Virus record (IMG/VR): IMGVR_UViG_2565956610_000009
Coordinates: 1 to 29,055 of that record
DNA from: a virus
Lineage: Duplodnaviria; Heunggongvirae; Uroviricota; Caudoviricetes
Direction: 5' to 3' (one strand)
Length of the DNA stretch: 29,055 nucleotides
Shown one piece after another: positions 12,238 to 13,685 of the stretch (its first letter is position 1; each line of letters begins with the position of its first letter). Both the position numbers and the translations under genes were made by a program. Below the pieces are notes generated by a model, which ran no database searches, was not told where the DNA came from, and was given only the letters and a program-made list of their open reading frames with translations.

Positions 12238-12282
12238 CGTACCAGAAGTGCAGAATTTGCACTTTTACAGGAATGTGGTACG
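12238..12282. promoter_or_regulatory. Nested palindrome, candidate operator upstream of the metallopeptidase gene
   Basis: Outer inverted repeat CGTACC...GGTACG enclosing inner GTGCA-GAATT-TGCAC, about 55 bp before the start at 12337. Confidence 0.4.
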
Positions 12283-12336
12283 GAACATGCTGTCTATATT
12301 TCAACCAATAATCGTAATGCAGTAACTGGAGGAGCT

Positions 12337-12825
12337 ATGGCTACCAACCCAAGAGAGCACGCCCGGCGAGTGCTGGACACGTTCTGGTGCGGGCGTGGTT
12401 TCCCTGTTGATCCAGCGAAAATTGCTCACGACATGGGATTAGATGTTTTTATTACCGATCTTCCTGGGAAAGTTTCTGGCGCACTGATTAAACAAAAAGA
12501 TCAAGATCCAGCGATCTTTCTAAACAGTGATGACAACAAAGTTCGTCAACGTTTTTCATGTGGGCATGAGTTGGGGCATTACATCGCCCGGCAAGCATCG
12601 CATAGCGATGAATATGAGTACGTTGATTTACGTGGCGAAACCGCAAGCGCCGGAACGCATCCTGATGAAATTTTTGCAAACAAGTTCGCAGCAGAACTTC
12701 TGATGCCGGTAGATGAGGTCAGAAAACTGCACGCTGACGGTCAACCAAGTTATATAATGGCGCATTATTTTGGCGTATCTGACGATGCGATGACTTATCG
12801 TTTAAAGAACTTGAGGTTGGGGTAA
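12337..12825 (+). CDS. ImmA/IrrE-family Zn metallopeptidase (Peptidase M78 / DUF955)
   Basis: HEXXH motif in CGHELGHYI and downstream EIFANKFAAELLMP, the characteristic M78 signature; strong SD GGAGG. Confidence 0.8.
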   Translation: MATNPREHARRVLDTFWCGRGFPVDPAKIAHDMGLDVFITDLPGKVSGALIKQKDQDPAIFLNSDDNKVRQRFSCGHELGHYIARQASHSDEYEYVDLRGETASAGTHPDEIFANKFAAELLMPVDEVRKLHADGQPSYIMAHYFGVSDDAMTYRLKNLRLG

Positions 12826-12834
12826 CGCTTTAAA

Positions 12835-13440
12835 ATGCCATCGGATGACGATTTTAACAGCCGTTTCAAACAGGAAGTAGCACGCAGACTGAAGGATTCC
12901 CTCAACCTACACCGTCAGTTAGCAGAAGAGGTTGAGCCGGAGGACGATGAAACTCCGGTTCAGTCTCCTGACGAAGCTTCACCTCAGCCAAAGGTTTCGC
13001 ACGCCCCCAAAAAAACGGCTGTCCGTATTCGCGGAATAGCCAGAAAAAGAGCTGCCGAAGCTCGCAAAATGGCTGTAGCTGCGTCTAGCAAAAGAATTCC
13101 AACTGCTACACCCTCTCAACAAGTCACCCGTACTGAGAGTAAAATCTTGACCGAGTTCACATCTGTGAAACAGGTGAATTCACTTGATACCGAGCATGAG
13201 CGCAAACAACTCAACAACAAAGATTTTGAAGCAGAAATCGCTCTAAAAAAACGATACGGGAAATGGTTCCTGATTATCCTTGCTTTCCAACTTCTGATAA
13301 TGAATGGTGTATTTATTGCCGACGGCGCAGGTAAGCTGGAATTTGAGGATTTAACACTACAGTTGTACATGGGCGGTACTTTGACAGAGGTATTCGGCCT
13401 CGTGCTGGTCGTGACAAAATACCTTTTTAAACGCAAGTAA
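12835..13440 (+). CDS. Membrane protein with charged, low-complexity N-terminal region and two C-terminal TM helices
   Basis: Starts 9 nt after the peptidase stop (operon); hydrophobic segments WFLIILAFQLLIMNGVFIA and GGTLTEVFGLVLVVT; last 24 codons are duplicated at 16791-16862. Confidence 0.65.
   Translation: MPSDDDFNSRFKQEVARRLKDSLNLHRQLAEEVEPEDDETPVQSPDEASPQPKVSHAPKKTAVRIRGIARKRAAEARKMAVAASSKRIPTATPSQQVTRTESKILTEFTSVKQVNSLDTEHERKQLNNKDFEAEIALKKRYGKWFLIILAFQLLIMNGVFIADGAGKLEFEDLTLQLYMGGTLTEVFGLVLVVTKYLFKRK
13369..13440 (+). repeat. Direct repeat copy A (72 bp, 3' end of the membrane-protein gene)
   Basis: About 92 percent identical to 16791-16862; both encode MGGTLTEVFGLVLVV(T/V)KYLFKRK plus stop. 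Confidence 0.9.
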
Positions 13441-13464
13441 CTCTCTCGGTCCAACAGTCTTTCG

Positions 13465-13486
13465 AAGGCCCTGATCAAAGGGCCTT
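13465..13486 (+). terminator. Rho-independent terminator
   Basis: Perfect 8-bp stem AAGGCCCT / AGGGCCTT with loop GATCAA, 25 bp after the stop at 13440, followed by an A/T-rich stretch. Confidence 0.55.
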
Positions 13487-13685
13487 GATAAATTAGCAGT
13501 GCGTTGAAAACAGATAGTTATTCCCATCAGTTCCAACGTAATACACATCAAAAAAATCACCATTCTTTTGCTCTAACGTCAACACCTACCCTTAAAAAAA
13601 TAATTCTCCAAGAATGAGAAAGTTATTGTGTGTATTAGATAAGATATGAGCTGACACATCTATGGCGTGGAGCCAAATTTAATAT

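Follow-up and report, generated by a model that had tools for sequence, protein, structure and literature searches.

Introduction

RosmerTA was described by Millman et al. (2022) as a two-gene toxin-antitoxin (TA) defence system, the antitoxin of which carries an M78 Zn-peptidase domain. In the NetFlax network of Ernits et al. 2023 (PNAS, PMC10440598), the 'ImmA protease antitoxin' D25 forms a hub that is paired with many toxins. One of these pairs, encoded by Gordonia phage Kita, was validated as a new RosmerTA system; it consists of RmrA_D25 (YP_009301393.1, Peptidase_M78) and RmrT_D5 (YP_009301394.1, 'Transmembrane') (PMC10440598). The Kita toxin halts the growth of E. coli and rapidly depolarises and permeabilises the membrane. 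It is neutralised only partly by RmrA_D25, and the pair protects against a few BASEL myoviruses with a very narrow spectrum (PMC10440598). In one other RosmerTA system, rmrA could not be deleted (10.1101/2022.05.11.491447), and rmrA was found to be essential in three Pectobacteriaceae strains (10.64898/2025.12.09.693261). Here, a two-gene cassette is analysed that is located on the plus strand of a lambdoid prophage of E. coli, the virus record IMGVR_UViG_2565956610_000009, whose 29,055 nucleotides (nt) are referred to as the window. The first open reading frame (ORF) encodes a short M78 peptidase (12337-12825, 162 residues), and the second a membrane protein (12835-13440, 201 residues). Both are in the same frame with 9 nt between them, and RefSeq names their products 'ImmA/IrrE family metallo-endopeptidase' and 'hypothetical protein'.

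Results

Both proteins of the cassette have a counterpart in Gordonia phage Kita. Within the Kita locus, gene 32 (peptidase, 178 residues) is followed by gene 33 (toxin, 119 residues) with an overlap of 4 nt. The window peptidase and RmrA_D25 share 43% identity over 157 residues (E 1e-41), and Kita gp32 reached 166.8 bits against a hidden Markov model (HMM) of the peptidase family. Concerning the membrane protein, Kita gp33 (RmrT_D5) scored 44.1 bits against the family-wide HMM, while 6000 locally shuffled decoys did not exceed 14.2 bits. The score was still 41.7 bits after the three nearest relatives of RmrT_D5 had been removed from the model. The alignment of the Kita toxin with the narrow enterobacterial alignment in hhalign gave an E-value of 1.5e-4, and a direct BLASTP comparison of the two membrane proteins yielded 32% identity over 57 residues, with both membrane helices covered. 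In addition, an actinobacterial member of the family (L011) bridges the enterobacterial and the Kita groups in tblastn. Given the homology of both proteins and the matching gene order, the cassette is, by sequence comparison, an enterobacterial homologue of Kita RmrA_D25/RmrT_D5. An earlier reading of this DNA made from its letters alone (the sequence-only reading) did not recognise the pair as a named system, but it is homologous to an experimentally tested RosmerTA pair (PMC10440598).

The two pairs resemble each other in several respects. Both are phage-borne, and in both the first of two tightly coupled genes encodes a short peptidase devoid of an XRE domain and the second a small toxin whose membrane helices are C-terminal. 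They differ in the phylum of the host and in the toxin: that of Kita has 119 residues and that of E. coli 201, with a conserved N-terminal helix and ~85 residues of disordered linker in addition. The result with PADLOC was alike for both pairs: capP was the best profile, RmrA was matched only over the peptidase part and the toxin remained unmatched. For the window peptidase, the capP match (2.4e-25) extended over profile positions 3-151 of 242 and RmrA matches were partial, e.g. over positions 166-266 of 363. The canonical RmrA profiles of PADLOC are 357-400 positions long, whereas the window protein with its 162 residues matches the peptidase part alone. A match to an RmrT profile was absent for the window membrane protein and likewise for the validated Kita RmrT_D5. 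In canonical RmrA, the peptidase part is preceded by an XRE helix-turn-helix (HTH) domain.

Short M78 peptidases were also observed in a P2-like phage (L045, NC_070905.1, 1992-3168) and in mycobacteriophage Che9c (L046, 1917-2812), with 103 and 149 bits, respectively, against the family HMM. In both phages, the next gene encodes a small protein with hydrophobic, probably membrane-spanning segments that is unrelated to the toxin family of the window, and the Che9c pair adjoins a HicAB pair. The same architecture with a different toxin fits the partner swapping described by NetFlax.

The conservation of the pairing was examined from both sides. Ten genome loci and twelve viral contigs were fetched with the membrane protein, the genome loci originating from Escherichia, Leclercia, Buttiauxella, Thalassotalea, Gallibacterium, Microbulbifer, Desulfuromonas, a metagenome-assembled genome (MAG) of Rhodococcus and other MAGs. 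Four loci with distant relatives of the peptidase (52-56% identity) were added from Pectobacterium, Silvimonas, Pseudoalteromonas and Salmonella. Viral-scan loci L024-L032 were discarded, as their match was limited to the last 25-28 residues and no cassette was present. A true relative of the membrane protein is encoded in 27 of the fetched loci, and in each of these a peptidase gene is located immediately upstream on the same strand, with an overlap or a gap of at most 10 nt. These loci cover Gamma-, Beta- and Deltaproteobacteria and one MAG of the Actinobacteria. Conversely, the membrane gene was present in four out of four complete loci that had been chosen via the peptidase. In 22 loci, the small ORFs lying up to 700 nt from the cassette (107 in total) were checked, and no XRE-type HTH protein was among them. 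The sequence-only reading had named a membrane effector as partner of the peptidase in place of the XRE repressor, and the survey agrees with this: none of the peptidase homologues in these 22 loci sits beside an XRE gene, and the membrane gene is conserved with the peptidase.

The surroundings of the cassette are diverse. It was found in lambdoid and Mu-like prophages, in P4-like islands that carry primase, AlpA and integrase genes, and between housekeeping genes (pheST, sucCD, ars), with Phd/YefM antitoxins or type IIG restriction-modification genes as occasional neighbours. Mobile TA and defence modules typically show such heterogeneous contexts. A canonical terminator follows directly after the second gene in most of the other loci. 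Given the conserved pairing, the varying surroundings, the terminator in most loci and the lack of a neighbouring XRE gene, the cassette is, as judged from these loci, a mobile unit of two genes that is autonomous.

The first gene (12337-12825, plus strand) encodes a short zinc peptidase of the RmrA type (ImmA/IrrE, M78), an assignment which is based on Pfam, PADLOC, AlphaFold and Foldseek as well as on the homology to Kita RmrA_D25. It matches PF06114 (Peptidase_M78) with an E-value of 7.7e-18 over positions 3-123 of the 123 profile positions, as expected in the sequence-only reading. The zinc-binding and catalytic motif HELGH (H77, E78 and H81) is encoded at 12565-12579 and the third zinc ligand E111 at 12667-12669. 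All four residues are invariant in an alignment of 30 peptidase relatives, and the spacing of the ligands is that of the zinc ligands H96/H100/E129 of CapP. Since the HEXXH motif and E111 are conserved with a CapP-like spacing, the protein should be active and is predicted to be a catalytically intact M78 peptidase.

The AlphaFold model of the peptidase has a pLDDT of 89. Its best Foldseek matches were CapP (7t5t, TMq 0.73) and IrrE/PprI, and CapP was also the best sequence match in the PDB. The protein consists of the peptidase domain and an HTH-like linker and ends there, with neither an N-terminal XRE domain nor a GAF domain. An insertion loop of residues 88-108, which is less confident in the model and contains the invariant residues D97 and R99, aligns with the cysteine-switch loop of CapP and is devoid of cysteine. 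A PprI variant lacking the GAF domain retained basal cleavage, but lost its activation by single-stranded DNA (ssDNA) (PMC10904395). Sensing of ssDNA in the manner of CapP or PprI is thus unlikely for the window peptidase, because the GAF domain required for this activation of PprI is absent.

The cassette was also compared with other systems that contain an M78 peptidase. CapP of the CapH/CapP pair of CBASS (7t5t) has its zinc ligands and an insertion loop at the same positions as the window peptidase. However, the cassette has no CapH/XRE partner and no cysteine in the loop, the peptidase is missing the C-terminal GAF domain (162 residues versus 278-291 residues), and no CBASS, DISARM or similar operon follows downstream; its neighbours are unrelated and vary between loci. 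With ImmR/ImmA of ICEBs1 and IrrE(PprI)/DdrO of Deinococcus, the cassette shares that the M78 peptidase is encoded beside its expected target, and the size of the window peptidase is near that of the GAF-less PprI-NM fragment. ImmA is similar in size as well. The difference lies in the partner: the window encodes a membrane protein where these systems have an XRE repressor, and it shows no apparent transcriptional target. In a pair of ImmA/IrrE and DUF4411 ('PIN2'), a DefensePredictor hit listed as 'Predicted novel defense gene' (PMC13092281 supplement), and in PD-lambda-2 (HigB, Xre-peptidase and a third gene, PMC9519451), an M78 peptidase is likewise the hub partner of a toxin-like effector; these are candidate or tested modules of defence. 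In these two cases, though, the effectors are nucleases or RNases instead of a membrane hairpin, and extra domains or a third gene are present. The ClpP-dependent TA pair of E. coli E101 was considered as the same cassette and rejected, since its toxin gene comes first and its proteins are different. No paper came up when the literature was searched for the RefSeq accessions WP_000224749 and WP_001138663, and both were absent from those supplements of the DefensePredictor and NetFlax papers that were searched.

The second gene (12835-13440, plus strand) encodes a candidate membrane toxin of the RmrT_D5 type, as suggested by alignment, the AlphaFold model, PHROG 5346 and the homology to the Kita toxin. 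The protein has no match in Pfam, NCBIfam or PADLOC. Further look-ups in PHROGs, by tblastn against phage genomes and by Foldseek against the PDB led to no named system, but just to PHROG 5346, whose function is unassigned. AlphaFold predicts a helix of residues 4-32, disorder between residues 33 and 118 and two long helices (119-164 and 172-199), which form a membrane hairpin. The first transmembrane helix (residues ~144-163, 13264-13323, WFLIILAFQLLIMNGVFIAD) contains the conserved polar residues Q152 and N157. The second one (residues ~173-195, 13351-13419, LTLQLYMGGTLTEVFGLVLVVTK) is the most conserved segment of the protein and includes T182, T184 and E185. The ORFs, the PF06114 match and the AlphaFold model thus agree with the two-gene operon of an M78 HEXXH peptidase and a protein with two C-terminal transmembrane helices, antiparallel to the early operon of the phage, that had been read from the sequence before.

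Among the relatives of the membrane protein, the length of the linker is highly variable, while a C-terminal core of ~85 residues is strongly conserved and the short N-terminal helix is shared within Enterobacteriaceae. The core contains a juxtamembrane motif (D..AE..LKK.YG.WF), membrane helix 1, in which Q and N are found, and membrane helix 2 (LYMGGTLTEVFGLVLVVTKYLF); the loop of the hairpin is short and acidic. The shortest members of the family have only ~35 residues ahead of the juxtamembrane motif. Basic residues at either side of the hairpin suggest that both ends of the protein lie in the cytoplasm, and the N-terminal 140 residues would therefore share a compartment with the peptidase. 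A profile search against 1.84 billion representative proteins retrieved 671 cluster representatives (50% identity) at E ≤ 0.001, and among the matches listed most members comprise 100-170 residues. That the polar residues of the hairpin are kept across phyla argues for a function as effector over one as a simple anchor.

Natural loss-of-function genotypes were sought in order to tell which of the two genes encodes the toxin. Only one change was suggestive, and it is confined to a single E. coli lineage: in L042 (L042:1286) and L043, the start codon of the second gene is ATA and not ATG, with the remaining 201-codon frame and the peptidase gene intact. This may reflect down-regulation or recent inactivation of the toxin. 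Apparent frameshifts in L039-L041 were not counted as gene loss: both genes are affected, in each case at homopolymers, and the changes resemble sequencing errors. An IS1 element in five E. coli genomes (L038, NZ_CP124455.1; equivalent to 13440-13903 of the window) was likewise rejected as a loss-of-function genotype. It is inserted in the intergenic region just 3' of the membrane-protein gene and leaves both cassette genes intact.

Upstream of the cassette, a nested inverted repeat GTACCA...TGGTAC (12239-12281, plus strand) encloses the inner repeat AAGTGCA-5 nt-TGCACTT (12246-12264). The sequence-only reading had interpreted it as an operator. The palindrome itself is real and unusual: it folds at -18 kcal/mol, and a nested repeat of this type occurred in 0.6% of 20000 shuffles, compared to 15% for the inner repeat alone. 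Among the enterobacterial cassettes, however, only those of near-identical Escherichia loci carry it while the others lack it, and the cassette itself encodes no DNA-binding protein that could be its cognate regulator. A search for a conserved operator revealed that the upstream regions are unrelated between loci, except for a short leader common to L003, L004 and L018. A scan of 12100-12336 for promoters gave nothing convincing. The peptidase gene is preceded by a Shine-Dalgarno sequence GGAGG (12328-12332, plus strand) at a distance of 4 nt from the ATG. Tiny leader ORFs were noticed just 5' of the peptidase start codon, namely, ATGCAGTAA at 12317-12325 of the window and TTTCGATGATGAAATGAACG (ATG ATG AAA TGA), which is common to the enterobacterial loci L003, L004 and L018. 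These ORFs may represent a conserved element of the leader or may have arisen by chance.

On the 3' side of the second gene, a GC-rich hairpin of AAGGCCCT-6 nt-AGGGCCTT (13465-13486, plus strand) may act as a weak terminator. The structure that had been claimed as terminator is indeed stable with -15.5 kcal/mol, but it has no T-tract and was not called by a terminator scan. Nor is it common to the E. whittamii locus L002.

The region from 11500 to 14700 was matched in 457 of 5426 complete genomes, and identical copies are present in many of them, including ST131-type strains such as JJ1887. According to an annotated copy, the early-right operon of the prophage runs on the minus strand from the cro-like gene via YdaT, the replication genes, the helicase, DUF1367, DUF1364 and the Q antiterminator to the lysis genes. 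An accessory island of lower G+C content (~10.7-18 kb) lies between the replication and the nin/Q modules, and the cassette is located inside it, antiparallel to the early operon; the flanking phage genes (Q, DUF1367, helicase and cro-like) are all found on the opposite strand. The immunity region of the prophage is ~10 kb away and contains a repressor of 130 residues (about 22880-23271) without an S24 self-cleavage domain. There is no LexA box ahead of the cassette.

Several other genes of the prophage deserve mention. The sole perfect LexA box, CTGTATATTTATACAG (10691-10706, within TACTGTATAAATATACAGG on the minus strand), is situated ~25 nt 5' of the ATG of an ORF of 59 residues (10489-10668, minus strand, WP_001025459). 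The product of this ORF has no Pfam match and is a candidate for an SOS-controlled small anti-repressor of a prophage whose 130-residue repressor has no domain for self-cleavage. An anti-repressor of the Ant/ORF6N type is encoded in the accessory island at 16887-17723 on the minus strand (phrog_4792, E 1.5e-165), with weak matches to PDC-S05 of PADLOC too. The gene at 13903-14601 (minus strand) lies in an islet of 32-33% G+C and encodes a protein of 232 residues with an N-terminal hydrophobic segment, likely a membrane helix. At the DNA level, the gene shares 90.6% identity with P2-EC58 hotspot cargo ('putative lysogenic protein'), and in PADLOC its product weakly matches RTasTM, a profile associated with DRT (1.8e-5). 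The gene, which has a strong terminator of its own (hairpin 13685-13718), is a moron or defence candidate separate from the cassette. Two further accessory genes encode a protein annotated by RefSeq as belonging to the lysozyme inhibitor LprI family (15789-16712, plus strand, phrog_5094) and a protein of 225 residues to which no function is assigned (10820-11497, minus strand, phrog_5215).

Discussion

The cassette is best interpreted as belonging to the RosmerTA family of toxin-antitoxin and phage-defence systems, as an enterobacterial representative of the Kita subtype; it would act as an abortive-infection module with the peptidase as antitoxin. We assign this reading a probability of roughly 60%. 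A role in TA and abortive infection is the most likely one because the Kita homologue consists of a pore-forming, depolarising toxin and a partial antitoxin and confers narrow defence. We infer toxicity, pore formation, neutralisation and phage defence of the E. coli pair from those of its Kita homologue. The peptidase is regarded as the antitoxin by homology to RmrA_D25, and other Rosmer systems, in which rmrA was undeletable or essential, support this role.

The following course of events is proposed on this basis. The product of the second gene would be a small inner-membrane protein, whose hairpin with the polar residues Q, N, T and E could oligomerise into a depolarising and permeabilising pore. 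The first gene would provide a cytoplasmic M78 peptidase that is probably translationally coupled to the second gene and restrains the toxin, most likely by acting on its cytoplasmic N-terminal or juxtamembrane segment. The pair would be expressed from the prophage as a moron, against the direction of the early genes. An infecting phage would upset the balance between the two proteins, whereupon the toxin would collapse the membrane potential and the infection would be aborted. The same TA property could also stabilise the prophage.

Some observations weigh against this interpretation. The similarity of the toxin to that of Kita is limited to the core of ~85 residues (32% identity), and the N-terminal part of the E. 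coli protein is long and different. Toxicity, neutralisation and defence were all reported for the Kita homologue and not for the E. coli pair. In Kita, neutralisation was only partial and the AlphaFold complex of toxin and antitoxin was unreliable with a pDockQ of 0.05, so that direct neutralisation is putative for this pair as well, and its defence spectrum was very narrow (PMC10440598). PADLOC recognises a capP-like peptidase, but would not call the locus Rosmer, as RmrA is matched only in part and RmrT not at all. Finally, loop 88-108, which aligns with an autoinhibitory loop in CapP, would be more in keeping with a protease activated by a signal than with one that is constitutively active. 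The loop also has a place in a more specific and still tentative model, which we consider possible but doubtful: the short peptidase without HTH and GAF domains would be a proteolytic antitoxin or switch that cuts the toxin at its juxtamembrane motif (~EIAL137/K138KRY), is gated by the autoinhibitory loop and possibly responds to a phage cue.

The loop also bears on the opposite polarity, in which a phage cue would activate the peptidase and the cytoplasmic N-terminal part of the membrane protein, inhibitory in nature, would be cleaved off to release an active pore. The characterised M78 relatives ImmA, IrrE/PprI and CapP are all signal-activated and cleave a protein encoded next to them, and the loop with its invariant residues D97 and R99 aligns with the cysteine switch of CapP. 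Disorder and a variable length, both seen in the N-terminal part of the membrane protein, would suit an inhibitory segment that can be removed, and the juxtamembrane EIAL-KKRY offers a hydrophobic residue followed by a basic one like the F/R cleavage site of CapH. The L/R cleavage site of DdrO is such a hydrophobic-then-basic pair, too. However, the Kita membrane protein is toxic alone and the peptidase lowers its toxicity, and the undeletable or essential rmrA of other Rosmer systems speaks for an antitoxin as well. Moreover, the shortest family members offer merely ~35 residues ahead of the juxtamembrane motif, and the GAF domain that PprI needs for activation by ssDNA is missing. Activation by the protease is hence considered improbable. 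The sequence-only reading had proposed a protease-gated, membrane-disrupting defence module; its abortive-infection or defence role is retained here as the best reading, but the polarity it implied is probably wrong, given that the Kita peptidase behaves as an antitoxin. Pure addiction, i.e. post-segregational killing by which the prophage or island is retained without any anti-phage role, would be in line with the TA architecture, with the occurrence of the cassette on prophages, satellite-like islands and stand-alone islets and with the very narrow defence spectrum of Kita. It is nevertheless an unlikely explanation, as protection against phages is documented for the Kita homologue as well as for other Rosmer systems, and a role in addiction is compatible with one in defence.

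Two further explanations assign the membrane protein a subordinate part. If the cassette were a membrane-anchored superinfection exclusion system, the peptidase would be held at the inner membrane to cleave ejection or injection proteins of incoming phages, and the cell would survive. The position as a prophage moron, the membrane-protein partner and the intact protease agree with this, but a plain anchor needs no hairpin whose polar residues are conserved across phyla, and the Kita homologue is a depolarising toxin, so that exclusion of this kind appears very improbable. Hardly credible is an anti-repressor of the ImmA type that cleaves the short repressor of 130 residues ~10 kb away and thereby induces the prophage, with the membrane protein as an accessory. 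Although the peptidase belongs to the M78 family, the repressor is short and some related phage peptidases are annotated as 'antirepressor', no XRE gene adjoins the cassette in 22 loci. In addition, the cassette also occurs outside prophages between housekeeping genes, the peptidase is always tied to the membrane gene, and the prophage holds other candidates for induction in the 59-residue ORF behind the LexA box and the Ant-type anti-repressor.

For the biology of E. coli, the RosmerTA interpretation means that a cassette common in clinical strains is missed by PADLOC; otherwise, it is the expected kind of prophage cargo. If the proteolytic switch proved true, it would represent a TA defence system based on the direct control of a pore-forming toxin by a regulated protease. 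Profiles for the membrane-toxin family, for which neither a Pfam nor an NCBIfam model exists, would improve the annotation of defence systems. As an E. coli-native and easily manipulated representative of the RosmerTA branch with a short RmrA and a membrane toxin, the cassette would be a good model for the Rosmer mechanism.

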